Source: a virus (taxonomy: Duplodnaviria; Caudoviricetes). Taken from it: a stretch of DNA of 64,000 bases. Made by a program: the position numbers and the translations under genes. The DNA lies in the IMG/VR virus record IMGVR_UViG_3300009664_000002, positions 7,333 through 71,332 of that record. One strand, 5' to 3'. The notes beneath the pieces are model-generated. The model did not search any database, was not told the origin of the DNA, and saw only the letters and a program-made list of their open reading frames with translations. Of this stretch, positions 10,248-50,315 are shown in pieces. Within the stretch, counting starts at the first letter, position 1. Each line of letters starts with the position of its first letter.

Positions 10248-10273
10248 ATACGAAAAATTGAAATTATTGTTAC

Positions 10274-10301
10274 AAAAAAAAACCCGAAAAATTTCGGGTT
10301 T
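10274..10301 (-). terminator. Intrinsic terminator after 10326..12545
   Basis: aaacccgaaa/tttcgggttt hairpin with a U9 tail on the minus strand. Confidence 0.85.
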
Positions 10302-13759: not shown

Positions 13760-15508
13760 ATGAATTTAAATTGTTTGAAAAATATAATAACTGACAAACT
13801 ATCGATTAATTTTGATATTTCAAATATAAATTCTTGGGATTTAAACACAGGTTTGACAATAACAAGTTTAAACAAATGGTTTGATGCAAAATCTACTGAT
13901 ATAGAAATAAATGATTTTGGATTAACTGGTTTTGATTTTGGTTTATCTAATAATATGTTAAATTCTTTAAACATAAAATCAAATGATGTTTATTTAAAAT
14001 TAAAAAGGATTGGATTTAATGAGGTTTTAAATCCTGATAATAATAATTATAGTGGAATTACAGCAACAACAAAATATGATTCACATAAAATTAATCCAAT
14101 TACTACTGGAAATACAGGTAATTATTTTATGTTAAACGGTGGTTATTTACATGGTTTTTTTAAATTATTTGGGTATGATTTTGAATTATTTCCATCAAGA
14201 TATAATAATGGTATTACTATAGAAACAATACTTTATTTAACACCAAAATCATATGGAATTTTTTATACAATGGGTGTTCGTTCTGAAGATAAATATAATC
14301 CACATTATCATGGTGAGTTTTATAGTGGTGAAACTATTAATGGTATTACAACATCATATGATAATTATTTAGAATCTTATTTCGAATATAAATCAAAAAA
14401 AACACAAATAAGGTTACCAGAAGATGCATATGATTATAAGCATAGTAAAATAGAACAAATTGAAAATTTGAAAAATAATATTATTGCGTTTGGTTTAAAT
14501 GAAAACAAAAATCTCTATTATAAATATATTGATTCAAATGGTTTAATAAAAACAAATTTATCCAATAAACCATTAACAAATACGGGTTTTACATTAATTT
14601 CAATTACATATAAACCAAATTATATTTTTGATAATAATCAACAATTAAAATGTGGAAAACAACGAATGGGAATTTTATCATTTTATGTAAATGGTCGTTT
14701 ATTTTGGAAATTAAAAGAATTTCCAGAATTTTATTTTAGAGAATTAAAAAATGATAAAGAAAAACAAATTGGTATTCCATATTCAATAAGTTGGGGTGGT
14801 GGTAGTTTTGGATTAAAACATTCATGGCATTATGATTCACAAACATATAATATTTTTACTAACCAGAATGAAGAATTTTTAAAAAACAATTTTTCTATTA
14901 TTGATGAATATGATAACATTAGTAATGATTTGGAAATAAATTTAAGCAATTCAGAAATTTCTATAAATTATATTAGTGGAAATAGCGAATATTATTTTTT
15001 AAAATTTAATAATCCAATTAAAATTTTGTCAAATAGAGATTATAAAATATCTTTTTTATTTAAAAATAATAATTTATTAGAGATAGATAACTATTTATCA
15101 AATTTTTTATTTAGTGAAACAACCGATATCAACATTTATGACGATATTGTTGAAAAATTAGAAGATGATTGGAATAAAAAGACAATTGTTTTTAGAACAG
15201 AAGATAATTCAAAAGAAAATTTTATTTATTGTGGTATTTTAATTAATTCGGAAATATTTAAACAAATAAACGATTTTTATATAAAAGATATTACATATAC
15301 TGGTTCAGATATTTTAGTTCATGATGAAAAGAAATTAAATTTAATTATTGAAAATAATTTTAATAATTCTTTTATTGGTGGAATTCAAAAATTAAGACTT
15401 TATGATAATTGTTTAAAATCTAATGAAATTTTACATAACGCAATAATTGAATCCAAAAACAATGATAATATTATTGTGGATAAAGGTGGTAGAATAATTA
15501 GAATTTAA
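13760..15508 (+). CDS. Virion protein with LamG/ConA-like domain
   Basis: LSFYVNGRL and FIGGIQKLRLYDNCLKSNEI motifs of LamG-like folds. Confidence 0.55.
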   Translation: MNLNCLKNIITDKLSINFDISNINSWDLNTGLTITSLNKWFDAKSTDIEINDFGLTGFDFGLSNNMLNSLNIKSNDVYLKLKRIGFNEVLNPDNNNYSGITATTKYDSHKINPITTGNTGNYFMLNGGYLHGFFKLFGYDFELFPSRYNNGITIETILYLTPKSYGIFYTMGVRSEDKYNPHYHGEFYSGETINGITTSYDNYLESYFEYKSKKTQIRLPEDAYDYKHSKIEQIENLKNNIIAFGLNENKNLYYKYIDSNGLIKTNLSNKPLTNTGFTLISITYKPNYIFDNNQQLKCGKQRMGILSFYVNGRLFWKLKEFPEFYFRELKNDKEKQIGIPYSISWGGGSFGLKHSWHYDSQTYNIFTNQNEEFLKNNFSIIDEYDNISNDLEINLSNSEISINYISGNSEYYFLKFNNPIKILSNRDYKISFLFKNNNLLEIDNYLSNFLFSETTDINIYDDIVEKLEDDWNKKTIVFRTEDNSKENFIYCGILINSEIFKQINDFYIKDITYTGSDILVHDEKKLNLIIENNFNNSFIGGIQKLRLYDNCLKSNEILHNAIIESKNNDNIIVDKGGRIIRI

Positions 15509-16049
15509 TATACTGATAACCAATATTGGTTAAAATAAAATTTTCAAGAAATTCTTTAATAAAAAGTTCTTTGATTTTATTTGGTGCTTCATGAAATCCA
15601 TTAAATTCAATTTCATCGCCATAATAAAATAATCTAACGTCAATATCTAACCAATTAATGTTTGTAATATATTTTGTATAATCTGGTGGCGTATAATAAT
15701 TTCCTTTTGAAGAATCGTCATATAGATTAACATTAATTTTATCACCAGTAAAATCTAGCGTGAGATTTATTGGCTTTTCGTTGCTGTCATAATTATATTC
15801 AAGATTAATAAAATATATAAAAGAAAAATCATAAAAATTATCATATGAATTTTCAGTAAAACTACTATCCTCAAGATTAAATTTTAAATTATTTTTTCTG
15901 TTAAGAATGTCTGAAATTAATTGTTTTTGAAAATCAATATTTTTTATTTTATTTAAAATATTATTCGTTTTTTCTGTTTCACCAATTCCCAAAAAATCAA
16001 AATCACTAATTGTTTCATTAATAATTCTTATGAAATCTTTTCGTAACAT
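15498..16049 (-). CDS. Hypothetical protein with N-terminal IINETI motif
   Basis: 183 aa ORF with TATTTATA upstream. Confidence 0.7.
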   Translation of the reverse strand: MLRKDFIRIINETISDFDFLGIGETEKTNNILNKIKNIDFQKQLISDILNRKNNLKFNLEDSSFTENSYDNFYDFSFIYFINLEYNYDSNEKPINLTLDFTGDKINVNLYDDSSKGNYYTPPDYTKYITNINWLDIDVRLFYYGDEIEFNGFHEAPNKIKELFIKEFLENFILTNIGYQYIKF

Positions 16050-16124
16050 TTTAATTTATTTTTTTTTATAAATACTTATCAAACATCAAACTATTTATAA
16101 TAAAATACAATATAATATAAAAAA

Positions 16125-16412
16125 ATGACTATCAATAAAAAAAGAATGTTTGAAATTAATGATTTTTTGAATTCTAATTCAAGCAAAACCAATGATTTTA
16201 AATTAGGTGATGTAAAATTCATTAATAATTTAAAAACACCAGCACTTTTAAAAGCACAATCAAGAATAAATACACAAGAAGAATTTAAACAAGCATTTGA
16301 AGATTGGTTTGGTAATTTAGGTGTTGCTAATGAATTTAAAGATAATTTTAATTCTACAACAGCAATTAATCATATAAGAGAAATTTTTAAAAATTTTGGA
16401 ATAAAACCATAA
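16125..16412 (+). CDS. Hypothetical protein
   Basis: 95 aa ORF, N-terminal KKRMFE motif. Confidence 0.65.
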   Translation: MTINKKRMFEINDFLNSNSSKTNDFKLGDVKFINNLKTPALLKAQSRINTQEEFKQAFEDWFGNLGVANEFKDNFNSTTAINHIREIFKNFGIKP

Positions 16413-16438
16413 ATTTTTGTATTTATATTTTTAAACTA

Positions 16439-16446
16439 TATATTTG
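16439..16446 (+). promoter_or_regulatory. Bacteroidota-type -7 box TAnnTTTG upstream of leader 1
   Basis: TATATTTG here; the same box occurs at 18413, 19709, 21709, 25792, 30801, 32458 and 43155. Confidence 0.6.
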
Positions 16447-16459
16447 TAAAAAATTTTTT

Positions 16460-16525
16460 ATGATATTAAATGTAAATATACAACAACCCAATTCAAATCA
16501 ACATCCAAATATATTTAGATGGTGA
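16460..16525 (+). CDS. Attenuator leader peptide 1 (MILNVNIQQPNSNQHPNIFRW)
   Basis: 21-codon ORF rich in Gln/Pro/His codons; antiterminator overlaps its stop; precedes Pro/His/Gln tRNAs. Confidence 0.8.
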   Translation: MILNVNIQQPNSNQHPNIFRW

Positions 16526-16561
16526 GGTTTGTTGTATTATTTATATTTGAAAAAATAAATT

Positions 16562-16591
16562 AAACCCCACCAAAAAAAGTGGGGTTTTTTT
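16562..16591 (+). terminator. Attenuator terminator 1
   Basis: aaaccccac/gtggggttt hairpin with U-tract; 5' arm is complementary (10/11) to tggtgaggttt at 16520-16530. Confidence 0.85.
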
Positions 16592-16616
16592 GTAACATTT
16601 TATTTAGAATAACGTA
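16591..16616 (+). promoter_or_regulatory. ECF-sigma-like promoter TGTAAC-N16-CGTA downstream of terminator 1
   Basis: One of at least 15 copies with 16-17 nt spacing. Confidence 0.65.
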
Positions 16617-16628
16617 AAAATAAAAAAT

Positions 16629-16705
16629 AGGGTAGTTGGGGAGTCAGGTCACCCCGCCACATTTGGGATGTGGAGAACTCGTGAGTTCGAATCTCACCTA
16701 CCCTA
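16629..16705 (+). tRNA. tRNA-Pro(TGG)
   Basis: Acceptor agggtag/ctaccct, anticodon arm ccaca-tttggga-tgtgg, T-loop ttcgaat. Confidence 0.9.
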
Positions 16706-16707
16706 CT

Positions 16708-16780
16708 GTGTTAGTGGACTATTGGCTGTCCGTTCAGATTGTGGCTCTGAGTGATGGGGGTTCGATTCCCCTCTAACACC
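16708..16780 (+). tRNA. tRNA-His(GTG), no encoded G-1
   Basis: gtgttag/ctaacac acceptor, C73, tcaga-ttgtggc-tctga; base -1 is T. Confidence 0.93.
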
Positions 16781-16785
16781 AAAAT

Positions 16786-16856
16786 TGCTCTATGGTGTAA
16801 TGGTAACACGTCAGAATTTGACTCTGAAGATTTAGGTTCGATTCCTTATAGAGCAA
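16786..16856 (+). tRNA. tRNA-Gln(TTG)
   Basis: tgctcta/tagagca, tcaga-atttgac-tctga. Confidence 0.92.
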
Positions 16857-16860
16857 CAAA

Positions 16861-16975
16861 ATTATAATCTAAATGAATTCGGGTGAAAAGTAGTAAGTTG
16901 GTTAAATTCCAAGTTCAATTAAAATTATGAGAAATCTAGTAAGGTGGTTCGAATCCATTATATTTGGATTATAAT
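16861..16975 (+). ncRNA. tRNA-like RNA with 15-bp terminal stem and T-arm
   Basis: 16861-16875 pairs with 16961-16975; T-arm ggtgg-ttcgaat-ccatt; central ttgg-ttaaatt-ccaa hairpin. Confidence 0.5.
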
Positions 16976-16981
16976 TTTTAA

Positions 16982-17056
16982 CTAGGTGTTCCGCAGATGG
17001 CTATACGGACATGCATTGGAAGCATGTTTTCGGGAGTTCGAATCTCTCCACCTAGA
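16982..17056 (+). tRNA. tRNA-Pro(TGG), second copy
   Basis: ctaggtg/cacctag (C1:G72, A73), catgc-attggaa-gcatg. Confidence 0.88.
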
Positions 17057-17070
17057 CTAATTTTTTTATT

Positions 17071-17442
17071 ATGAAGTATAATTTATATTTAGATGATTTT
17101 AGAAATCCAAGTGATTCTGCATATTATTTAAAAAATAATATCTATTTGAAATTGGAATGGGTTGTAGTTAGAAATTATAATGAATTTGTAAAATGTATTG
17201 AAAAAAATGGAATTCCTGAAATTATTTCATTTGACCATGATTTAGCAGATATTCATTATGATTATCAAACAGATTTATTTTCAGAAAAAACTGGTTATGA
17301 TTGTGCTAAATGGTTTATTGATTATATTATTGATAATAATTTACAATTACCAAAAAAAATATTAATCCATTCAATGAATCTAGTTGGAAGTAAAAATATT
17401 AAATCTTTATTTGATAGTTATATTAAATCATTAGAAAATTAA
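17071..17442 (+). CDS. Cyclic-phosphate-processing receiver domain protein (RNA repair associated)
   Basis: LYLDDFRNP, WVVVRNYNEF, ISFDHDL, KTGYDCAKW and IHSMN motifs. Confidence 0.78.
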   Translation: MKYNLYLDDFRNPSDSAYYLKNNIYLKLEWVVVRNYNEFVKCIEKNGIPEIISFDHDLADIHYDYQTDLFSEKTGYDCAKWFIDYIIDNNLQLPKKILIHSMNLVGSKNIKSLFDSYIKSLEN

Positions 17443-17476
17443 TAAACTATTTATATTAAAATTTTTAATTGCTATA

Positions 17477-18382
17477 ATGAATTGTTTTAATATAATTACA
17501 GAAGAAATTATTGATTTTTTTGTTAATGAAACATATAATTCAATAAATGAATTAAAAAAATTATCAAATGATATTGTTTTAAAAATAGCAAAAAATAATA
17601 TTGATAATTTTAAAAATATAAAAAAACCATTTAAAATAGAAGGAATTTTATTAAGTGAAATTAATCCTTCAAACTATGTTGAATTATATAATTTTATTAC
17701 AAAATTTGAATTATTCATACAAATAAAACCAACCGATAAATCAAAAAAAGATAAAGGTGCTTATTTTAGAATAGTTCCGTCAAATAAAAATGCATTGAAA
17801 AAGATTGAAATTTATGTTAATGAAAATGATATTCAAGAAATATTTAATGAATTGAATAATACTACAAAAGAAATTAATCATAAAGATTTATATTTTCATC
17901 TATTTCATCTTATATATAAAACATTATTACATGAATTACAACATGCATTTGATGATTTTAGAAGTGATACTAAAATATTTCAAACAAAAAAAACAATTAA
18001 ATATCACGATGATATTGATAAAATAAAAGATAATGTAAAAAATATAATAACAAAAGATTCTATTTTATTCAGTAGATATTTAAACCTTCAACATGAAGTT
18101 TGGGCTAGATTCATTCAAGCAATAAATGATATTGAATTTGTTGACCTTATAATAGATGATGAATTGAGAGATATATTAGTAAAATTAAAACCATTAGAAA
18201 TTGTTGTAAAAAAATTCATTTCAAACTATTATGGATTTAGACCATTAAATAATAAAATAAAAAAGAAATTAATTAATAAAGTTGTACAATTTTGGCATTA
18301 TGAAAAAGAAAAATTCAATAATAATGAATATGTTTCTTATGATGAATATAAACGTCAAAATAAATTAGAAAAAATATTTTAG
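17477..18382 (+). CDS. HExxH zincin-like protein with N-terminal IITEEI motif
   Basis: LLHELQHAFDD plus downstream HEVWAR. Confidence 0.6.
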   Translation: MNCFNIITEEIIDFFVNETYNSINELKKLSNDIVLKIAKNNIDNFKNIKKPFKIEGILLSEINPSNYVELYNFITKFELFIQIKPTDKSKKDKGAYFRIVPSNKNALKKIEIYVNENDIQEIFNELNNTTKEINHKDLYFHLFHLIYKTLLHELQHAFDDFRSDTKIFQTKKTIKYHDDIDKIKDNVKNIITKDSILFSRYLNLQHEVWARFIQAINDIEFVDLIIDDELRDILVKLKPLEIVVKKFISNYYGFRPLNNKIKKKLINKVVQFWHYEKEKFNNNEYVSYDEYKRQNKLEKIF

Positions 18383-18400
18383 TTTTTTTTTTGTAGTTTA

Positions 18401-18427
18401 TGTAACATTTTATATCTTTGTATCGTA
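18401..18427 (+). promoter_or_regulatory. Overlapping ECF-like (TGTAAC-N17-CGTA) and TAnnTTTG promoters for leader 2
   Basis: tgtaacattttatatctttgtatcgta; near-identical to 30789-30815. Confidence 0.7.
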
Positions 18428-18455
18428 TTTATTGAAAATATAACAAATAATTATC

Positions 18456-18554
18456 ATGAAAAATTTACTCGACATACTATCATTAAATTTAGAAAGTGTT
18501 CTATTATGGGCGGTTAACGAAGATGATTTGTTAATTGATGTCGGGTTATATTAA
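18456..18554 (+). CDS. Attenuator leader peptide 2 (MKNLLDILSLNLESVLLWAVNEDDLLIDVGLY)
   Basis: 21 of 32 residues are L/D/E/V/A/W, matching the downstream tRNAs. Confidence 0.82.
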   Translation: MKNLLDILSLNLESVLLWAVNEDDLLIDVGLY

Positions 18555-18574
18555 AAATTTAATATATAAAAATG

Positions 18575-18606
18575 AAAAAACCCCGACAATGAAGTTGGGG
18601 TTTTTT
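18575..18606 (+). terminator. Attenuator terminator 2
   Basis: aaccccgac/gttggggtt hairpin with U-tract; 5' arm can pair with gtcgggtt at 18540-18547. Confidence 0.85.
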
Positions 18607-18616
18607 GTTCTTTGAA
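18607..18616 (+). promoter_or_regulatory. boxA-like GTTCTTTGAA
   Basis: Identical 10-mer at 19721 (before tmRNA) and 31030 (before tRNA cluster 4). Confidence 0.6.
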
Positions 18617-18636
18617 TGTTTGTAAATTTTTTATTG

Positions 18637-18708
18637 GGTCTTTGTAGTGTAATGGTTAGCATACCACACTGTCGATGTGGTGGCGGGGTTCGAATCCCAC
18701 AAAGACCG
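18637..18708 (+). tRNA. tRNA-Asp(GTC)
   Basis: ggtcttt/aaagacc, G73, ccaca-ctgtcga-tgtgg. Confidence 0.93.
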
Positions 18709-18715
18709 CAAATAT

Positions 18716-18787
18716 GTTCCCATCTTCTAAGGGTTAGGATATCACCCCTTCAAGGTGAAGATATGGGTTCAAATCCCATTGGGAATA
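18716..18787 (+). tRNA. tRNA-Glu(TTC), C at position 33
   Basis: gttccca/tgggaat, tcacc-ccttcaa-ggtga. Confidence 0.88.
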
Positions 18788-18794
18788 CAAACAT

Positions 18795-18865
18795 AGGAAA
18801 TTGGTGTAATGGTAGCGCATTTGGCTTACATCCAAAAAGAAATGGTTCGATTCCATTATTTCCTA
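18795..18865 (+). tRNA. tRNA-Val(TAC)
   Basis: aggaaat/atttcct, tttgg-cttacat-ccaaa. Confidence 0.9.
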
Positions 18866-18877
18866 CAATAAAAAAAA

Positions 18878-18965
18878 CCTCTTGTGGTGAAACTGGAATA
18901 CACGGTAGTCTTAGGAACTACTGCGAAGTAATAGTAGCATGTCGGTTCGAATCCGACCAAGAGGA
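18878..18965 (+). tRNA. tRNA-Leu(TAG)
   Basis: cctcttg/caagagg, gtagt-cttagga-actac, long variable arm. Confidence 0.92.
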
Positions 18966-18975
18966 CTGAATAAAT

Positions 18976-19049
18976 GGGGGTGCATGTACCAAGGCTGGCG
19001 AGAAACACTTGCAATGTTTCTGTGGTGGGTTCGTTTCCCATCATCTCCA
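18976..19049 (+). tRNA. tRNA-Ala(TGC)
   Basis: G3:U70 in gggggtg/catctcc, aaaca-cttgcaa-tgttt. Confidence 0.9.
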
Positions 19050-19082
19050 CAAAAATTATTACTATTTATTATAAAAAAAGAA

Positions 19083-19577
19083 ATGGAATATTTAAAATAT
19101 TTTTGGGGTTTTATGTTATTTGTTTTTATATCATATATTTCATTTGTTTGGATTAAATATGGTATACAACGTAGCATTTCTGATAGTTACTACAAATTAT
19201 CAAAAAAATTACAACCATTATTTGTCTTTTTTTGTTGGGGATTTGCATTTCCTGCAATAGTAATAGGTGTTACATTAACTGATAATTTTTTAATGTTTTT
19301 AGCGGGTACGGGTATTTGTTTCGTTGGTGCAGCAGCAGCATTTAAAGAAAATTTAACAAAAATTGTTCATATGATTGGTGCTTATGGTGGTGTGTTCTTT
19401 AGTCAATTATCAATTGCGTTAGATTTTAAAATGTTTTATGTTAATATTATTTTCATTACTATTGCAATAATATTTGAGATTTTATCCTATATGAAAAAAA
19501 TGAATAATAAAATTTGGTGGCAAGAAATTTTAGCATTTTTATCAATAGTCTTTGTTTTTTATTGTAATTTATTTTAA
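19083..19577 (+). CDS. Multi-pass membrane protein
   Basis: ATG at 19083 (MEYLKYFWG...); several hydrophobic helices; the longer track ORF overlaps tRNAs. Confidence 0.8.
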   Translation: MEYLKYFWGFMLFVFISYISFVWIKYGIQRSISDSYYKLSKKLQPLFVFFCWGFAFPAIVIGVTLTDNFLMFLAGTGICFVGAAAAFKENLTKIVHMIGAYGGVFFSQLSIALDFKMFYVNIIFITIAIIFEILSYMKKMNNKIWWQEILAFLSIVFVFYCNLF

Positions 19578-19584
19578 ACAAAAT

Positions 19585-19655
19585 ACGTCTTTGGTGTAAT
19601 GGTAGCATAAATCTCTCCAAAAGATTTGGTACTTGTTCGAATCGAGTAAGGCGTG
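19585..19655 (+). tRNA. tRNA-Trp(CCA)
   Basis: acgtctt/aaggcgt, G73, aatct-ctccaaa-agatt. Confidence 0.9.
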
Positions 19656-19742
19656 CAAAAAAAAATAAAAAATTTGTAACATTTTTTGGTTATTTACGTA
19701 AAAAGATATATATTTGAAAGGTTCTTTGAATTAATAGTATAT

Positions 19743-20096
19743 GGGGCATACAGGTTTTGATTATAAATTTGAGTAATGTGTAAGCAAGTAGTGATTGAAT
19801 TCTCACTAAAATAAGGTTCAAAACAATAAATGCAGAAGACTTAATGTCATTTCCAACTTCCATTACAATGGGAAGAAACACAATTGTAGAGAATATTGAA
19901 CTCGCAATTGCTGGTTAGGAAGCAGTAAATCAATAAAATCAATCAACTCATTCAAAGTTTGTCTATTCTTAAGAAATGTAAGATTGTAAAATTAGAATGT
20001 AAAAAATAGTCTATTTGTTGGTAAAAAAAACCAAATAAACTTGTAGAAAGCACAAAATTCTTTTATAAGACTTGGGTTCGATTCCCAAATGCTCCA
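19743..20096 (+). ncRNA. ssrA: tmRNA
   Basis: ggggcat...atgctcc-A acceptor with G3:U70, T-arm ttggg-ttcgatt-cccaa, resume context ataaat-GCA, tag ORF 19832-19918. Confidence 0.9.
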
Positions 20097-20121
20097 CTAA
20101 ATATTTAAAAAATAAAAAAAG

Positions 20122-20535
20122 ATGTCAGATTTTGAAAACTATAAAATAGATTTTGAAAACAATAAAATTCAAGAATTTATAAAAGAAATGAGAAAAAACG
20201 ATGGAATTTTAGAAAATCGTTTTTTTAAATTTGAAAAATATCTTGAAAATAATAGTTTTGATGATTTAATGCTTCGAATTATTGAAGAACACAATGATAA
20301 TTGGATTAATAATTGTTATTTGAAAAATTGTAAACCATATCCTAATAACAAACTATCATTTATTTTAGAATATGTTGAAAGAAAAGGTGAAAAAGTGATT
20401 GTTAATGAAATTAAATCAAATTTTGTAAATGAAATTTTTGAATTTAAAGGATATTATTTTCAATATATTTATGGTCAAGGTGTTTTAATAAAAATATATT
20501 TAAAAAAGAATTTAAAATTATTGTTATCTTTATAG
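20122..20535 (+). CDS. Hypothetical protein
   Basis: 137 aa ORF between tmRNA and tRNA-Leu. Confidence 0.7.
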   Translation: MSDFENYKIDFENNKIQEFIKEMRKNDGILENRFFKFEKYLENNSFDDLMLRIIEEHNDNWINNCYLKNCKPYPNNKLSFILEYVERKGEKVIVNEIKSNFVNEIFEFKGYYFQYIYGQGVLIKIYLKKNLKLLLSL

Positions 20536-20539
20536 ATAT

Positions 20540-20626
20540 GGCGAAGTGACGTAATTGGTAGCCGTGTTGGACTTAAAATCCAATGGTCAGTAATAGACCG
20601 TGTGGGTTCGAATCCCACCTTCGCTA
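20540..20626 (+). tRNA. tRNA-Leu(TAA)
   Basis: ggcgaag/cttcgct, ttgga-cttaaaa-tccaa, long variable arm. Confidence 0.93.
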
Positions 20627-20660
20627 CTTGGGTTCATCTTTCATTCGAAAGAAGGAAATA

Positions 20661-20698
20661 AAAAAAACGCAAACCAAAATGTTTAGCGTTTTTTTTTA
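20661..20698 (+). terminator. Intrinsic terminator after tRNA-Leu
   Basis: aaaacgcaaac...gtttagcgttttttt. Confidence 0.7.
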
Positions 20699-20718
20699 TT
20701 ATTTATTATAAAATTTTT

Positions 20719-20931
20719 ATGTTTGTGGAATTATTAGATTTAAAATATGGTGATGTAATAATGTTTTTATCATCAGATAAAACCAATCCAACGTTGGTTA
20801 TAAAAATATTTAGTATTGATGAAAACAAAATTATTGACTTTAATTCTAAGGAATATTTAACTATGGAAATAAAAGATAAGTATAATAAAGCATATATTTT
20901 AAACAGATGTAATGATGAATCAAAAGAATAA
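20719..20931 (+). CDS. Hypothetical protein
   Basis: 70 aa ORF. Confidence 0.55.
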   Translation: MFVELLDLKYGDVIMFLSSDKTNPTLVIKIFSIDENKIIDFNSKEYLTMEIKDKYNKAYILNRCNDESKE

Positions 20932-21229
20932 TATAAAAACAACCACAAATCGTAGTGAATTTAATAGAAAATACAAAAAATTTTTAGCAGATAGTGGTAA
21001 AATTAAATGTCGTTATTGTAAATATAATCAGGGTGAAAATAATAAAAATAAGTGGTATGGTGGAATAATAAAAAATATATTAGATTTATCTAACATAAAA
21101 TATCCAAATTGGAAATTGGTTTCTAAAAATCGTAAACAATGGATGAATAAAAAAACAAAATTTATTTTTAATAGAACAAAATTTGGTGATTTTTATTATG
21201 AAATAAAATTCAATAAAAAATATTTTTAA
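20912..21229 (+). CDS. Hypothetical basic protein with CxxC
   Basis: 105 aa ORF, IKCRYCKY. Confidence 0.6.
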   Translation: MMNQKNNIKTTTNRSEFNRKYKKFLADSGKIKCRYCKYNQGENNKNKWYGGIIKNILDLSNIKYPNWKLVSKNRKQWMNKKTKFIFNRTKFGDFYYEIKFNKKYF

Positions 21230-21660
21230 AAAATAATATAACAAACATTGGTTTTAAAATCAAATTCTAATTCTTGGATATAAATCGAATCATTAATTTT
21301 AAAATTATTATCTTCATTAATATGAAATTTCCAATCAATATCACTAATATTTTTTTTGTTTTCTTGTTCTAATTCATCTGTTTGTCTGTTGTAATATTCA
21401 AGCAAATAATAACCATTAATGTTTTTTATATCTATTCCAATATTTTCAATACCCATTCTATTAATCCAAAAATTAATACCCCAATTTATATTTATGTCAT
21501 ATTCATTAATATAAACATCAAAATCGGAAGTAAAACTACTATAATTATAAAATGAACATTTTGGTATTTTTTGGGTAAAATTAAATCTATCATCTGATAT
21601 TTCTAAACCTTCGTTTAAAAAATTTAAAATTTCACAATTGATTAATTTTTTAAATTTCAT
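21226..21660 (-). CDS. Hypothetical protein with N-terminal LINCEILNFLNE motif
   Basis: 144 aa ORF. Confidence 0.7.
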   Translation of the reverse strand: MKFKKLINCEILNFLNEGLEISDDRFNFTQKIPKCSFYNYSSFTSDFDVYINEYDININWGINFWINRMGIENIGIDIKNINGYYLLEYYNRQTDELEQENKKNISDIDWKFHINEDNNFKINDSIYIQELEFDFKTNVCYIIF

Positions 21661-21737
21661 AAATTCATATTTTTATAATAAATAGTTTGATTTTTATTGA
21701 AAATAAAATATCTTTGTTATTTAAATTTTTATAAAAA

Positions 21738-22241
21738 ATGCAAGAATATACATCAAAAAATTCTTCTATTAAACAAATACCATTTGGTTTTAAAATAGTT
21801 GATAAATATTTTGGTTGGAAACCAAATTCAATCAATTTAGACATTGGTGGTGGTAAATATGACTTATTTACAAATAAATTAAAAGAAAAAAGAGTAACAA
21901 ATTTAATTTATGACCCATTTAATAGAACAAAAGATTTTAATGAAAATTCATTAAATTATGCAACAAAATTTGGTGTTGATACTGTTACTATATTTAATGT
22001 TTTAAATGTAATTAAAGAATATGATATTCAAATAAGTATAATAAAATTAGGTTTTGATGTTTTAAAAAATAATGGAATGATTTTTATTCGTTCAACATAT
22101 AAAAACCCTAAAGGATATTCAACCGAAACAAAACCAGATGTCTTTCAACATTATTTAACAATGAATGATTATTTAAATATAACAAAAACAATATTTCCCA
22201 ACGCAATTTTAAAATACGGAATTATATATGGAATTAAATAA
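21738..22241 (+). CDS. Class I SAM-dependent methyltransferase
   Basis: NLDIGGGKYD motif I, IYDPFN, DTVTIFNVLNVI. Confidence 0.75.
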   Translation: MQEYTSKNSSIKQIPFGFKIVDKYFGWKPNSINLDIGGGKYDLFTNKLKEKRVTNLIYDPFNRTKDFNENSLNYATKFGVDTVTIFNVLNVIKEYDIQISIIKLGFDVLKNNGMIFIRSTYKNPKGYSTETKPDVFQHYLTMNDYLNITKTIFPNAILKYGIIYGIK

Positions 22242-23256
22242 AAATACTAATATTTTTGTTAATAAAAAATATTGGAAAAACATGAATGATAATGAAATTG
22301 AAAATTTTGTTAATGAAATTTTTATATATTATAGAAAAAATGGTTTTCCATATTATTCAACAACTGATGAATATAGAAAATCGGAATTTTCAAAGTTAAT
22401 AAATTTTAATTATGAAAATTTATGGTATGAAGACATTATTGGACAATCAATGCATGGTTTGGGACTGGCATGGTCATATTTTCCACATTCTTTTAATGTA
22501 AAATGTAATAATAAGATAACACCATATGAAGCATTTTTTGATGATAAAATTTTTAAAGATGTTATTCGTAAAAGATTAAAAATTGGTACTTATATTTCAG
22601 ATTCTGGAATCAGAAAAATGTTAAAAATTCATACTGGTGTTCAAGGTGTGTCTAATTTTAGACCAACTGCTGCTGCATGTATATATAAAAAATATGGAAA
22701 TGGTGGTACTGTTTGGGATATGTCAAGTGGGTGGGGTGGTCGTTTACTTGGTGCAATAATTAGTAATAATGTTAGTAAATACATTGGAACAGAACCATCA
22801 AAAAAAACATATGATGGATTATTTGAATTAGCAAAAGATTTTAGTGGTAATATGAAATATGAATTAAATTTATGTGGTAGTGAAGAATATATTCCACATA
22901 AAAATAGTTTAGATTTATGTTTTACATCACCACCATATTTTAATTTAGAAAAATATTCAAACGAACATACTCAAAGTTATTTAAAATACCCATTATTAGA
23001 TGATTGGATTGAAAATTTTTTAAAAAAAACAATAATAAATTGTTATCATGGATTGAAAAAAAATGGTTTTTTAATCATCAATATTTCAGATAATCCCAAA
23101 AATAATTTAAATCTTGAATTGAATACAATACAAATTGCAAATTTTATTGGTTTTAAACATATTGAAACAATAAAATTAACATTATCTAATGTTAATTTAC
23201 GTAATAAAAATAGTAAATATAAATATGAACCAATATTTGTTTTTAAAAAAAATTGA
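22228..23256 (+). CDS. Amino (N4-C/N6-A) DNA methyltransferase
   Basis: WDMSSGWGGRLLG SAM-binding motif and FTSPPYFNLEKY catalytic motif. Confidence 0.85.
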   Translation: MELNKNTNIFVNKKYWKNMNDNEIENFVNEIFIYYRKNGFPYYSTTDEYRKSEFSKLINFNYENLWYEDIIGQSMHGLGLAWSYFPHSFNVKCNNKITPYEAFFDDKIFKDVIRKRLKIGTYISDSGIRKMLKIHTGVQGVSNFRPTAAACIYKKYGNGGTVWDMSSGWGGRLLGAIISNNVSKYIGTEPSKKTYDGLFELAKDFSGNMKYELNLCGSEEYIPHKNSLDLCFTSPPYFNLEKYSNEHTQSYLKYPLLDDWIENFLKKTIINCYHGLKKNGFLIINISDNPKNNLNLELNTIQIANFIGFKHIETIKLTLSNVNLRNKNSKYKYEPIFVFKKN

Positions 23257-23308
23257 TTTTTTTGTAACAAAGTTTTAATATTTTCGTATTAAAAAAATAA
23301 AAAAGGAA

Positions 23309-24409
23309 ATGGATTATTTAAAAAAAATAGATTGGAATGTTTTAAATAATTATATTAATGATGGTTTAATTACAAAAAACAAGCATCCTGAATATGACAT
23401 TTGGGTATTAAATTATTCACCAAAAACTCAAGCAAAAGGTTTGTGGGATTTATATACATTATCGTGTAGAGGACTAATTATTGATATTGATGGTAATATA
23501 TTGGCAAGACCATTTCAAAAATTTAAAAATATTGAAGAACATGATGAATCAGAATTTGATTTAACACAAGATTTTGATATTTTTGAAAAATTAGATGGTT
23601 CTTTAATCATATTATTTTATTATAAATCACAAATGAAATGGATTGTTGCATCAAGAGGTTCTTTTATTTCTGAACAGTCAATTGAAGCAAAAAAAATGTT
23701 ATATAAAGATTTAAATTTATTTAAAAAACTTAATAAAAAATGTACTTATTTGTTTGAAATCATATATAAAAAAAATCGTATTGTTGTTGATTATGGTGAT
23801 ATGTATGATTTAATATTGTTGTCAAGAATTGAAACCAATACAAATTTTGAATTGTTTTATGATGACTTAGTTGATAAATATTCTAAAATATTTACTATTG
23901 TAAATAAAATAAATATTAAAATTAATAATATATATGAATTAAAACAATTAAATGAAAAAAATAAAGAAGGGTTTGTTGTTAGATTTTTTAATGGATTTAG
24001 AGTAAAAATAAAATTTGAAGAATACGTTAGATTACATGGTATTTTAACTAATGTTTCCAATATAATAATATGGGAACATTTAAAAAATAATTATGATTTT
24101 AATAAAATCTTTGATAAAATACCAGACGAATTTTATAATTGGATTGTAAAAACAAAAAAAGAAATAATTTCTGAATATAATGAAATCGAAAGAAACGCAT
24201 TAAAAGAATTTATAAAAATATTTCATATTAATAATATTAAAGAACGTAAATCATTTGCTTTAGAATCTTTAAAAACAAACTATTCTTCAATATTATTTAA
24301 ATTGTATGATAAAAAAGAATATAATTATATTATTTGGGATATGATTAAACCAAAATATTCAAAACCGTTTAATAATAATGATAATATTAATGATTTGAAT
24401 TTATTGTAG
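23309..24409 (+). CDS. RNA ligase, T4 Rnl1 (RnlA) family
   Basis: EKLDGSL adenylation motif I, CRGLI...ARPFQKF, EGFVV, VKIK. Confidence 0.88.
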   Translation: MDYLKKIDWNVLNNYINDGLITKNKHPEYDIWVLNYSPKTQAKGLWDLYTLSCRGLIIDIDGNILARPFQKFKNIEEHDESEFDLTQDFDIFEKLDGSLIILFYYKSQMKWIVASRGSFISEQSIEAKKMLYKDLNLFKKLNKKCTYLFEIIYKKNRIVVDYGDMYDLILLSRIETNTNFELFYDDLVDKYSKIFTIVNKINIKINNIYELKQLNEKNKEGFVVRFFNGFRVKIKFEEYVRLHGILTNVSNIIIWEHLKNNYDFNKIFDKIPDEFYNWIVKTKKEIISEYNEIERNALKEFIKIFHINNIKERKSFALESLKTNYSSILFKLYDKKEYNYIIWDMIKPKYSKPFNNNDNINDLNLL

Positions 24410-24450
24410 TTATATTTTAAACATTGAACACGTTTTAAAAAAAGAGAAAT

Positions 24451-24729
24451 ATGTTTGATATAGAAAATAGAAAATTAACGAATGAAGATATTAATGGTTT
24501 ATTAATTGATACCGAAAAAACAATAAATTTTTTAATTTATAGTTTAATTCATAAACCAACATTTAATGATGATGGATTTAAAGCAATTGTAAACATATTT
24601 AAATCAATGATTATAAATAATGCACTAAAAAACAATAAATTAATAATTAAAAACAAAGACGAATTTCTTGAAAATATTAAAACTGAAATTAATAAAATTG
24701 TAAAAATATATACTAATATTGAATTATAA
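24451..24729 (+). CDS. Small paralogous family protein (copy 1)
   Basis: Similar to 24719, 25172 and 25467. Confidence 0.7.
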   Translation: MFDIENRKLTNEDINGLLIDTEKTINFLIYSLIHKPTFNDDGFKAIVNIFKSMIINNALKNNKLIIKNKDEFLENIKTEINKIVKIYTNIEL

Positions 24730-25030
24730 TAAAATGGAAGAACTGACAAATGATATTATAAATCAATTTTTAATTCAAATTGAAAATGAAATTAATAATT
24801 TTGAAAAAAATAATGGATTTGAATTAGAGTTTAATGAAAATTCTATTTATGCAATAACGTCATTATTTACAATGGCAATTGTAGATAAATTACAAAAACT
24901 ACAAAAAGAAGAAAAACTTTCAATGGAAGATACTATAAATATGGCATCATCAGTTGGTGGTGAAATAAATAAGATTATGAAAAAATATGTTAACATTGAA
25001 AATATTAACGATAATACTAATGAAAAATAA
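24719..25030 (+). CDS. Small paralogous family protein (copy 2)
   Basis: LIQIENEINN...LFTMAIVDKLQ. Confidence 0.7.
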   Translation: MNYNKMEELTNDIINQFLIQIENEINNFEKNNGFELEFNENSIYAITSLFTMAIVDKLQKLQKEEKLSMEDTINMASSVGGEINKIMKKYVNIENINDNTNEK

Positions 25031-25035
25031 ATAAA

Positions 25036-25167
25036 ATGGATGGTATAATAAATAAAAAATTTGAAAAGATTTATGAATTATTAATAGATATGGAAAACAA
25101 TTTTGTTGAAAACATTGAAGCAGAATTTAATAAAACTATAAAAATATATACAAATATTAAATTATAA
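25036..25167 (+). CDS. Short/truncated member of the paralog family
   Basis: MDGIINKKFEK...KTIKIYTNIKL shares its C-terminus with copy 1. Confidence 0.5.
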   Translation: MDGIINKKFEKIYELLIDMENNFVENIEAEFNKTIKIYTNIKL

Positions 25168-25171
25168 CATC

Positions 25172-25459
25172 ATGGAAAATTTAATAAATAAAACGTTAAA
25201 TCAAAATTTAATTCAAATTGAAAATGAAATCAATAATTTAAAAAATAATAATAAATTTAAATTGTATTTTAATGATGATTGTGTAATTTCCATAATATCT
25301 TTATTTACAATTGCACTTATTGATAAAATACAAGAATTACAAGAAAATGAAAATCTTTCCATTGAAGATACAAAAAATATGGTCTTATCTATATCTATGG
25401 GTGAAAAAATAAAAGATATTATAAAAAAATATTTTTATAATATAAACATTAATAATTAA
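25172..25459 (+). CDS. Small paralogous family protein (copy 3)
   Basis: LIQIENEINN...LFTIALIDKIQ. Confidence 0.7.
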   Translation: MENLINKTLNQNLIQIENEINNLKNNNKFKLYFNDDCVISIISLFTIALIDKIQELQENENLSIEDTKNMVLSISMGEKIKDIIKKYFYNININN

Positions 25460-25466
25460 ATAAAAA

Positions 25467-25751
25467 ATGATTGGTAAATTATTAAATTCACAATTAATTG
25501 AAATTGAGAATCAAATTTGGGATTTTGAATCCAAAAATGGTGGAAAACCAGAATATTCAATGGAAGGTTTTAGGGCAATTATTAAAATATTTAGTTCTGG
25601 TATTCTTGATAAAATGTGGGAATTCCAAGAAAATAAAAACATGAATTTAATTGAAAAAAGAAAAATGATTCTTAATTTTTCTAATGAATTGAATGATATA
25701 ATAAAAAAATATACTGATATTGAAACAAAAAAATTGTATGAAAAATTTTAA
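25467..25751 (+). CDS. Small paralogous family protein (copy 4)
   Basis: LIEIENQIWDFE...GFRAIIKIFS. Confidence 0.7.
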   Translation: MIGKLLNSQLIEIENQIWDFESKNGGKPEYSMEGFRAIIKIFSSGILDKMWEFQENKNMNLIEKRKMILNFSNELNDIIKKYTDIETKKLYEKF

Positions 25752-25806
25752 TATTTTTGTAACAAATTTTTGTTTTATTCGTATTTATAACTACATTTGT
25801 AAAATT

Positions 25807-25884
25807 ATGATTAGAAATAACAAATATTACCACAGCATTAAATTCTATAAGAAGATTCTTATGGTAATGGGAATTCTATGTTGA
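25807..25884 (+). CDS. Attenuator leader peptide 3 (MIRNNKYYHSIKFYKKILMVMGILC)
   Basis: 7 Lys/Tyr among residues 6-16; precedes tRNA-Lys and tRNA-Tyr. Confidence 0.8.
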   Translation: MIRNNKYYHSIKFYKKILMVMGILC

Positions 25885-25911
25885 TATTTGTTAAATATTT
25901 TAAAAAATATT

Positions 25912-25947
25912 AAAACCCGATTCCCAATAAATGAATCGGGTTTTTTT
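25912..25947 (+). terminator. Attenuator terminator 3
   Basis: aaaacccgattc/gaatcgggtttt hairpin with U-tract; tgggaat (25868-74) can pair with attccca (25920-26). Confidence 0.85.
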
Positions 25948-26020
25948 GTGTTCGTAACTCAATTGGTAGAGTACCACACTTTTAATGTGGGAGTTATGGG
26001 TTCAAATCCCATCGGACACA
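25948..26020 (+). tRNA. tRNA-Lys(TTT)
   Basis: gtgttcg/cggacac, ccaca-cttttaa-tgtgg. Confidence 0.93.
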
Positions 26021-26023
26021 CTT

Positions 26024-26117
26024 GGATGTCTAACGGCAGCAGACTGTAAATCTGCCCCACTTGAAAAAATTGTCGTATTGGTGTAGTGGTAGGGGGGTTC
26101 AAATCCCTCGGCATCCA
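26024..26117 (+). tRNA. tRNA-Tyr(GTA), non-canonical (D-arm relocated)
   Basis: ggatgtc/ggcatcc, gcaga-ctgtaaa-tctgc, T-arm; 8-nt 5' linker and 37-nt post-anticodon segment. Confidence 0.75.
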
Positions 26118-26202
26118 CAAATTTTTATTTTATTTTTTTGATTTTTTATTTATTATTATTATTTTTGTCTAAAAATAACAACTATTAATAATAAAGTTAA
26201 TT

Positions 26203-26916
26203 ATGGCAAAAAAGAAAAAAACAATCAAAAAAACAATTATTAAAGAAATAATTGAAACCAACGAAAAAACTCATATTATTTCTATTTTAGATAGAAGTGG
26301 TTCAATGGCGAATATTATTTCAGATAGTATTGGTGGATTTAATACTTTTTTAAAACAACAAAAAGAATTACCTGATGATGCAACAATAACAATTGTATTA
26401 TTTGATGATGAATATGAAGTTTTATATAGTAATGTTAATATTAAAAATGTTGATTTACTTACTGATAAAATTTGGACACCACGTGGTACTACAGCATTAT
26501 ATGATGCAATTGGTAAAACTATTAATAGTGAAAAAATAAAACTTAATAAATTAAAAGATGAAGCACCAGATAAAGTTTTGGTTTGTATTGTTACTGATGG
26601 AATGGAAAATGCTAGTCGGGAATTTAGATTGGATGATATAAAAAAAATGATTAAAGATTGTGAAAATGATAATTGGAATTTTATTTATTTAGCAGCAAAT
26701 CAAGATGCATTTAGTGTAGGACGTTCATTTGGTATTAGTGGTGGAAACACATTTACATATACAGCCGACATTGATGGTGTTAAAAATGTCATGGATTTAT
26801 TGGGTCAGACTACTTCGTTATATAGAAGTATGAGTAGTACATCAACATCATTTCAAGCAGATTCGAAAAATTTGATAACTAATGATTTTGAAGAATCGGA
26901 TGAAAATGATGAATAA
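26203..26916 (+). CDS. vWA domain protein
   Basis: MIDAS ILDRSGSM, GTTALYDAIG, IVTDGMEN. Confidence 0.88.
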   Translation: MAKKKKTIKKTIIKEIIETNEKTHIISILDRSGSMANIISDSIGGFNTFLKQQKELPDDATITIVLFDDEYEVLYSNVNIKNVDLLTDKIWTPRGTTALYDAIGKTINSEKIKLNKLKDEAPDKVLVCIVTDGMENASREFRLDDIKKMIKDCENDNWNFIYLAANQDAFSVGRSFGISGGNTFTYTADIDGVKNVMDLLGQTTSLYRSMSSTSTSFQADSKNLITNDFEESDENDE

Positions 26917-26933
26917 TTTTTTTTAAAGAAAGA

Positions 26934-26965
26934 AAAGTGGGCATTTATTTGCCCTTTTTTTTTTC
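26934..26965 (+). terminator. Probable terminator after the vWA gene
   Basis: gggca...tgccc hairpin followed by a long T-run. Confidence 0.55.
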
Positions 26966-27090
26966 TAAAAATTTAAAAATCAAGAAATAAATTTTTATTT
27001 TTATTTTGTTGGGATACATTTCTAAAGTCTTCTATTTATTGATAGAATAGAAAAATTAATAAAGAAAAAAAACGTAAAATTTTAAAAATT

Positions 27091-50209: not shown

Positions 50210-50315
50210 CTTTTATATATTTTTTATGGTTAAACATTTAAATAATATTACGAATATTCTTTTGAATTGTTACAAAATTATTATATTTTTGAAAAAAAAT
50301 AAAACGAAATTAAAT

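Follow-up and report, generated by a model that had tools for sequence, protein, structure and literature searches.

Ahead of a group of tRNA genes in a phage genome fragment, we find an arrangement that probably works as a leader-peptide attenuator. It lies at 18390–19656 of a 64-kb stretch of IMG/VR record IMGVR_UViG_3300009664_000002 (hereafter the window; all coordinates without a locus name refer to it, and features are on the + strand unless marked otherwise) and consists, in this order, of a promoter, a 32-codon open reading frame (ORF), an intrinsic terminator, a boxA-like element, five tRNA genes, an ORF for a membrane protein, and a gene for tRNA-Trp. The layout of promoter, leader ORF, terminator, and tRNAs occurs four times in the window, and we refer to the present copy as unit 2 and to the other three as its sister units. 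We consider it likely that unit 2 represents ribosome-mediated transcription attenuation of the trp/ilv type, applied to phage tRNA genes and acting as demand-driven feedback. The initial annotation had read the region as a leader-peptide attenuator, and that reading gains support from the promoter, the ORF, the cognate codons in the middle of the leader, the terminator, and the covariation of the antiterminator, both here and in relatives. The layout, the match between codons and tRNAs, the alternative pairings with their covariation, and the lack of any other promoter motif are visible in the sequence itself and in its comparison with relatives.

Organization of Unit 2

The promoter (18390–18427) is of the Bacteroidota sigma-A type, with TTTG at 18390–93, a 19-nt spacer, and TATCTTTG at 18413–20; the consensus TTTG/TAnnTTTG for Bacteroidota is taken from the literature (e.g., PMC6847099). 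A motif resembling those of extracytoplasmic function (ECF) sigma factors, TGTAAC-N17-CGTA, overlaps it at 18401–27. Across the window, TTTG-N19-TAnnTTTG occurs 12 times against 4.9 expected and TGTAAC-N16/17-CGTA nine times against 0.1 expected; a sigma-70 scan was uninformative in such AT-rich sequence, with 196 sites found and 179 expected. The 19-mer GTAACATTTTATATCTTTG of the promoter is found again at 30790 and at 20 IMG/VR loci, where it precedes homologous leaders. The leader ORF (18456–18554; 32 codons and TAA) starts ~30 nt after the −7 box, encodes MKNLLDILSLNLESVLLWAVNEDDLLIDVGLY, and is open throughout the homologues of an 18-member alignment made up of unit 2 and 17 relatives.

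Behind the terminator, the boxA-like element GTTCTTTGAATGTT (18607–18620) follows directly on the T-run and ends 17 nt before the first tRNA gene. ARAGORN called tRNA-Asp(GTC) (18637–18709), tRNA-Glu(TTC) (18716–18788), tRNA-Val(TAC) (18795–18866), and tRNA-Leu(TAG) (18878–18966) with default settings, and a divergent tRNA-Ala(TGC) (~18980–19050) only with a relaxed threshold. The latter has a weak match to the tRNA clan, aligns closely to a default-called tRNA-Ala of a relative (locus L035), and takes the array position of the relatives' tRNA-Ala, so that all five tRNAs that had been placed behind the leader are accounted for. A scan with Rfam returned tRNAs, a transfer-messenger RNA (tmRNA), and chance-level matches only, and no known regulatory RNA family.

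Several simpler accounts of the arrangement were considered and rejected. Transcription of the tRNAs from a promoter of their own was set aside since a motif scan found neither TTTG-N19-TAnnTTTG nor TGTAAC-N16/17-CGTA between 18428 and 19674. A terminator serving the upstream gene only does not fit, as that gene ends at 18382 and is separated from the leader by a promoter, and as the 5' arm of the terminator covaries with the 3' end of the leader. A chance ORF was discarded on account of the leader being open in 18 homologues and of a codon match confined to the ORF frame. With no promoter motif after the terminator, and with the T-run abutting the boxA-like element, readthrough is therefore the sole recognizable route to the tRNAs; no + strand terminator is predicted between 18607 and 19585.

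The single Trp codon of the leader had been linked in the initial annotation to tRNA-Trp(CCA) (19585–19656), the last tRNA of unit 2, as a suggestion of one transcript reaching that far. The link itself has held up well: TGG is invariant in 18/18 unit-2 leaders, the order in the homologous arrays is Asp, Glu, Val, Leu, Ala, (Leu-TAA), Trp, with tRNA-Trp as the last gene, and the ORF for the membrane protein sits just upstream of tRNA-Trp in 5/5 mapped arrays (L062, L071, L004, L057, and L085). The single transcript is argued for by this synteny and not by transcripts, and the synteny supports a unit 2 that would reach to at least 19656. The intervening ORF (19083–19577) encodes 164 hydrophobic residues, a predicted multispanning membrane protein embedded between tRNA genes; it has no match in Pfam or PHROGs, and its homologues in six related loci are 42–51% identical.

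Leader Codons and the tRNA Array

Our recount from the ORF agrees with the composition first reported, ten Leu, four Asp, three Val, two Glu, one Ala, and one Trp, together 21/32, and the core VLLWAVNEDDLLIDV is present as claimed. For a score at the level of codons, we combined the anticodons of each array with simple wobble rules and compared the result with the phage's own codon usage. The six tRNAs of unit 2 read 14/31 leader codons against 7.2 expected (P=6e-3); when tRNA-Leu(TAA), at 20540–20627, is added, the cognate codons rise to 21/31 against 9.2 expected (P=1e-5). This tRNA gene comes after the tmRNA gene in the window and is found inside the homologous arrays in relatives. The match is specific to the unit: the leader contains none of the Pro/His/Gln codons of unit 1 and 7 of the set of unit 4, for which 13.8 are expected, and in the complete matrix of four leaders and four arrays the diagonal is enriched and the off-diagonal depleted. 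The leader also makes use of CTC, CTA, and GAC, rare codons that occur 0.9, 5.3, and 6.7 times per 1000 in the long ORFs of the phage.

The Proposed RNA Switch of Unit 2

The leader transcript contains strands for mutually exclusive helices. Region 1, ACTCGACAT (18467–18475), is a candidate protector strand that can pair with region 2, ATGTCGGGTT (18537–18547); the latter, the putative 5' strand of the antiterminator, lies inside the last leader codons, 5–15 nt before the stop codon. A small AT hairpin (18547–18566) spans the stop codon and shortens the loop of the 2:3 helix, and relatives have an analogous GTAAT...ATTAC hairpin at this spacer position. The intrinsic terminator (18575–18606) is formed by region 3, AAAAAACCCCGAC (18575–87), a loop, and region 4, GTTGGGG with the T-run (18594–18606), and its hairpin has 13 pairs and a predicted energy of −14.5 kcal/mol. 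The final leader codons GTCGGG (18540–45) are a repeat of the terminator 3' arm, and pairing between them and the 5' arm is possible; the complementarity noticed earlier between GTCGGGTT (18540–18547) and AACCCCGAC (18580–18588), with one bulged C, is indeed present in the sequence.

The leader region folds far better than its shuffles (z=−5.25; 0/200 shuffles). In the full-leader fold, both the minimum free energy and the centroid structure contain the 1:2 helix (18467–75 with 18537–45), the spacer hairpin, and the terminator. In a fold without the terminator 3' arm, region 2 (18540–46) pairs with region 3 (18581–87) instead. Region 2 stops 8 nt short of the end of the stop codon, and in most leader families the corresponding distance is between −16 and −1 nt; given the size of the ribosome footprint, a ribosome at the leader end would cover region 2.

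In the 18-member family, the antiterminator and terminator helices carry compensatory changes. Of the 2:3 helix, 85.5% is paired; four of its pairs differ on both strands, and it has 16 double-change cells, a number matched by 0/500 shuffles. Its compensatory changes include ATTG/CAAT, GTAG/CTAC, and ACAG/CTGT; region 4 does not follow the 2:3 changes in several sequences, and the pairing is therefore more than a copy of the terminator 3' arm. In locus L017, all three strands have switched from CGGG to CGAG (GTCGAG/CTCGAC). The terminator helix itself (3:4) is 90% paired, and 4 of its pairs have changes on both sides. In the 1:2 helix, 99% of cells are paired, and the TCGAC core is invariant across the 18 homologues.

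Attenuator-Like Units in Relatives

Relatives were retrieved from IMG/VR by the promoter 19-mer (20 loci) and by the post-terminator motif GTTCTTTGACATGTTGG (>117 loci). A unit was defined by the best hairpin with T-run upstream of GTTCTTTGACATGTTGG and then by the longest ATG-initiated ORF ending 0–100 nt before that hairpin and T-run. The resulting 51 units are a lower bound, as the terminator finder overlooks some, and they group into ~23 leader families. The sequences differ from family to family, and the leaders of each reflect the array behind them. The distance from stop codon to terminator is 16–37 nt in 51/51 units. Among the leaders, MRTTGTTYQPKQYTQGGKP... stands before an array of Pro, Gln, Tyr, Thr, Gly, and Lys tRNAs, ...NWSSSRWSSR... 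before Ser, Arg, and Trp, MKNLNIILLGGTEADTLTRTAMV before Asp, Ala, Met, Gly, Leu, Thr, and Glu, MKTILNILPSILRPSIRRS before Ser, Arg, Pro, Ile, Met, and Leu, and MSNIINIQPQPQHHPQGC before Pro, His, and Gln.

With one representative for each of 23 families, the mean z of leaders scored against their own arrays is 2.93, as compared with 0.03 ± 0.29 for permuted pairings, and 0/200,000 permutations reach the observed value; the own array is ranked first or second by 17/23 leaders. For 157/159 isotypes present in an array, the leader contains one or more of their codons, against 148/278 for isotypes that the array lacks (Fisher P=2e-29). The enrichment is confined to the ORF frame (z 2.94), the two other sense frames and the three antisense frames being at ~0. 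Cognate residues make up 73–82% of the leader middle, against 36% expected and with the peak in deciles 3–7, and 40–50% of the ends. Since the cognate codons are in the middle of the leader, a ribosome stalled at them would leave region 2 free.

The pairing potential is similarly particular to each unit. The last ten codons and the stop pair with the 5' arm of their own terminator with a mean energy of −10.4 kcal/mol, as compared with −6.0 for the arms of other families (22 families), and 0/100,000 permutations reach the observed value. The paired words vary between the families, with ACCTAGGGC/GCCCTAGG, GGTTTCCCGCT/AGCGGGAACC, AGATGGG/CCCATCT, and TTTGGGCTTT/AAAGCCTAAA as examples. One relative of unit 2 (L052, 3003–3154) has an array without tRNA-Val, and its leader is without Val codons except for the structural GTC of region 2; the array goes on with tRNAs for Arg, Pro, His, and Gln, and a His codon has been acquired by the leader. 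To judge from these sequences, leader and array are here changing together within one family.

Two further features were seen in this part of the relatives. Most of those related to unit 2 carry (A)CCTCCTTTCTTAA between leader stop and terminator (e.g., L006:7647–7816, L051:1200–1380, and L062:1711–1869), a sequence that we take to be identical to the 3' tail of Bacteroidota 16S rRNA (the anti-Shine–Dalgarno); it is absent from the window's own unit 2. An outer helix flanks the terminator in differing registers, TACACACT/AGTGTGTA, TCCTTTCT/AGAAAGGA, and ACCTCC/GGAGGT, and one guess is that it serves as a processing stem.

A Model for Unit 2 and Its Alternatives

We infer from this evidence that the leader would be translated and that stalling, readthrough, cotranscription up to tRNA-Trp, and a biological trigger would be parts of one regulatory loop. 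Transcription would start at the 18390–18427 promoter, and the leader would be translated as the RNA polymerase advances. When Leu, Asp, Glu, Val, Ala, and Trp codons are decoded fast, the ribosome would arrive at the leader end and cover region 2 (GTCGGG, 18540–45), leaving regions 3 and 4 to form the terminator (18575–18606), and transcription would stop before the tRNAs. When an aminoacyl-tRNA is scarce, its codon would be slow and the ribosome would stall upstream, with region 2 left free; region 2 would then pair with region 3 once the latter is made, no terminator would form, and the polymerase would read through into the boxA-like element, the tRNAs, the membrane ORF, and tRNA-Trp. The tRNA products would relieve the stall, making this a negative feedback on decoding capacity. 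Candidate triggers are a shortage of host tRNAs, a mismatch in codon usage, and tRNA cleavage by host defenses; the switch would respond to aminoacyl-tRNA supply in general and not to amino-acid starvation alone. More broadly, we are inclined to think that Bacteroidota phages, and perhaps others, have a demand-driven tRNA supply, in which a translated test gene controls each array, samples all the codon families that the array serves, and allows its transcription only when decoding of one of these codons is slow. Such a phage would sense and repair the holes in the host tRNA pool, be they caused by codon-usage mismatch, host shut-off, or the anticodon nucleases of defense systems; genes for a tmRNA and an Rnl1-type RNA ligase are also behind the TGTAAC-N16/17-CGTA motif.

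Some of our observations weigh against this model. Ten of the 31 codons after the start are noncognate (K, three N, two I, two S, G, and Y), and a stall at one of them would likewise give readthrough. Seven of the ten Leu codons are TTA or TTG, which are read by tRNA-Leu(TAA), ~0.9 kb past tRNA-Trp, the gene for which may belong to the same transcript as unit 2. The 2:3 helix of unit 2 is short, 6–7 pairs with one bulge and ~−10.5 kcal/mol, and the 1:2 helix has no covariation in the 18-member family, its columns being invariant, which makes the role of region 1 as protector consistent rather than proven. In unit 1 and several relatives, a promoter-like motif follows the terminator, and attenuation is therefore not the sole input everywhere. 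Finally, attenuation of this kind would presuppose a sufficiently close coupling of transcription and translation in Bacteroidota.

The noncognate codons, which amount to about a third of the leader, are also an argument for an attenuator that is real but senses general translation capacity, such as ribosome availability, host shut-off, or overall amino-acid starvation. Any slow codon would stall the ribosome, and promoter motifs are common to the four units, which may therefore be switched on together. A general sensor would have no need of isotype-specific leaders, yet codons for 157/159 array isotypes occur in the leader of that array, 17/23 families place their own array first or second, and leaders are depleted in codons of the other arrays of the same genome; we regard a purely general sensor as unlikely. 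The hairpins might instead serve the processing or stability of a precursor made constitutively, as would RNase III or RNase E sites that separate the 5' leader from the pre-tRNA, and the outer helix around the relatives' terminators, with a boxA-like element behind it, recalls the processing stems of rRNA operons. That the hairpins have the GC stem and T-run of intrinsic terminators, and that processing would leave unexplained both a translated, codon-matched ORF and an ORF 3' end that copies the 3' arm of the hairpin, makes this very improbable as an alternative to attenuation, although the two could coexist.

The small ORF might, on the other hand, simply encode a short peptide and have a terminator of its own, with the tRNAs expressed by constitutive leakage or from a missed promoter and the codon match coincidental or a by-product. 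The unit-2 peptides are well conserved (MKNLLDIL...VLLW...ED..L..VG) and amphipathic looking, and promoters of phage-specific sigma factors could escape both of our motif patterns. In unit 2, however, the T-run, the boxA-like element, and the tRNA follow one another too closely for a promoter to fit; the terminator arm determines the C-terminal residues of the peptides, and the two change together, and a peptide function would have to account for ~23 unrelated leader families that mirror their own arrays. A comparison of four neighboring proteins with PHROGs, a scan in which the leader itself was not included, gave no informative family match. We give hardly any credence to the peptide-gene explanation and retain attenuation by tRNA supply as the preferred one.

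Comparison with Known Systems

The enterobacterial attenuators (ilvGMEDA for Ile, Leu, and Val, thr for Thr and Ile, and trpL, hisL, leuL, and pheL) have, as we propose for unit 2, a short translated leader rich in regulatory codons, alternative 2:3 and 3:4 pairings of which 3:4 is an intrinsic terminator, and a fold that depends on where the ribosome stands; their 1:2 helix has a candidate counterpart in unit 2. In the multivalent ones among them, one leader senses several amino acids, as that of unit 2 would. They differ in what they regulate, biosynthetic enzymes in their case and tRNAs in ours, where the product would act directly on the stall; in the coverage of a leader, which extends to six isotypes in unit 2 and up to 17 in relatives; and in form, as the regulatory codons of the phage leader are mixed and not in runs, the promoters are of the Bacteroidota type, and there is no sequence homology. 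Another related case is pheST of Escherichia coli, in which attenuation through the pheM leader controls phenylalanyl-tRNA synthetase and closes a loop on aminoacyl-tRNA supply; there, in contrast to the phage units, the gene is cellular, the controlled product is a synthetase, and one amino acid is sensed. T-box riboswitches, too, place a terminator/antiterminator switch before translation-related genes and read the state of a specific tRNA, but they bind the uncharged tRNA via a specifier loop and the T-box sequence, with no translated ORF and with one tRNA per element. Rfam found no match to the T-box family in 14000–34000 of the window at E<=1.

Leader-peptide attenuation is a textbook mechanism of amino-acid biosynthesis operons and of one synthetase operon, and the control of tRNA genes is usually placed at the promoter, via growth rate and the stringent response. 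As a class, the mechanism is familiar; what appears to be new is its application to tRNA genes, how many inputs one leader has, and its occurrence in a phage. We found no published account of these aspects, and our full-text literature searches returned no description of attenuators ahead of tRNA genes. If the model is true, phage tRNA arrays are not constitutive patches for codon usage but feedback-regulated devices that measure decoding capacity codon by codon. Leaders would then predict which tRNAs share an operon; here, they helped to identify the divergent tRNA-Ala and to link the distant tRNA-Trp to the array. The units would also be compact, naturally occurring sensors that monitor tRNA supply through up to 17 inputs, of possible use in synthetic biology, and offer a new angle on the contest between tRNA-cleaving defense systems and phage tRNAs. 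For a purely computational case, we find the evidence unusually strong.

The boxA-Like Element

The element that separates the terminator from the tRNAs of unit 2 contains GTTCTTTGAATG (18607–18), which abuts the T-run and matches a boxA-type consensus; in relatives, GTTCTTTGACATGTTGG stands ahead of tRNA arrays at 53/96 distinct sites. We read it as a putative antitermination signal that would protect the untranslated tRNA transcript past the attenuator. The E. coli boxA is GCTCTTTAACAA, which the GTTCTTTGA motif resembles, and the classical positions of boxA in rrn operons are before the 16S gene, after it, and before the 23S gene. The motif family is found at these positions in a Chryseobacterium rrn operon (L194), ~70 nt before 16S, just after the 16S gene as GTTCTTTAACAA, and ~40 nt before 23S, and in Pontibacter (L160) the motif precedes the 23S gene. 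Genomes with GTTCTTTGA(A/C)(A/T)... are mostly those of Bacteroidota, for which we found no citable boxA consensus in the literature. The boxA elements of rrn operons and of lambda nut are sites of NusB/NusE; unlike them, the phage element heads tRNA arrays downstream of a probably regulated terminator, and it is a putative site for Nus factors. The GTTCTTTGA... form is seen at 18607–18620 and 31030–31043 of the window and in relatives L024–L129, where it heads arrays and also occurs inside them.

Sister Units

Unit 1 (16416..16594) comprises a promoter, the leader MILNVNIQQPNSNQHPNIFRW, and a terminator, followed by tRNA-Pro, His, and Gln; 6/20 of its leader codons are cognate against 1.4 expected, and the other arrays are not enriched. 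In the Lys/Tyr unit (25758..25947), the leader MIRNNKYYHSIKFYKKILMVMGILC (four K, three Y) and a terminator precede tRNA-Lys and a Tyr-like tRNA; the 7/24 cognate codons against 3.8 expected are weak evidence on their own, and again the other arrays are not enriched. Unit 4 (30778..31041) has the same promoter 19-mer as unit 2, a 37-codon leader, a terminator, and a boxA-like element, and then 12 tRNAs, in the order Cys, Ile, Ser, Ser, Phe, Arg, Gly, Met, Asn, Thr, Arg, and Gly. Its leader has 28/36 cognate codons against 16.0 expected (P=5e-5) and is depleted in codons of the other arrays. The part of unit 4 from stop codon to terminator (30972–31032) gives a subthreshold match to the Rfam family Thr_leader (28 bits, E=0.12), which is at chance level and probably reflects only the shape of the terminator.

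The TGTAAC-N16/17-CGTA sites of the window are at 10249–10274(−), 16591–16616, 18401–18427, 19675–19700, 23263–23288, 25758–25783, 30789–30815, 34077–34102, and 50249–50274(−). They precede three leaders of tRNA units, the tRNAs of unit 1 (there after the terminator), the tmRNA gene, and the RNA ligase gene, and the motif may represent a phage promoter class for translation-repair functions.

The Phage and Neighboring Genes

The window covers 64 kb of a 71-kb, AT-rich record that is estimated to be ~24% complete, and the genome of this uncultured giant phage is therefore roughly 300 kb in size. The boxA-like motif and the promoter type point to a host among the Bacteroidota. Among 50,697 GenBank phage records, we found no close relative by blastn of 18385–18640 or by tblastn with the leader of one relative, and a wider blastn against GenBank phages gave tRNA genes as the sole matches. 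The window also codes for an Rnl1-type RNA ligase, a cREC_REC protein, and a ribonucleotide reductase, the large subunit of which (27091–30417) has an intein inside (Pfam Intein_splicing, residues 327–541).

ARAGORN finds 22 tRNA genes in the window with default settings, and one tmRNA gene. The latter (19743–20097; Rfam 73 bits), with the tag AEDLMSFPTSITMGRNTIVENIELAIAG, comes directly after the tRNA-Trp of unit 2 and has a TGTAAC-N16-CGTA motif of its own upstream. Divergent tRNA-like genes are missed at these settings: besides Ala(TGC) at 18980–19050, they are an Ile(GAT)-like gene (31145–31222), which occupies the position of tRNA-Ile in relatives, and a Tyr(GTA)-like gene (26024–26117), which comes after tRNA-Lys. 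Between tRNA-Gln and a second tRNA-Pro, at 16860–16980, there is in addition an unassigned 120-nt stretch with a terminal T-arm, which is missed as well.

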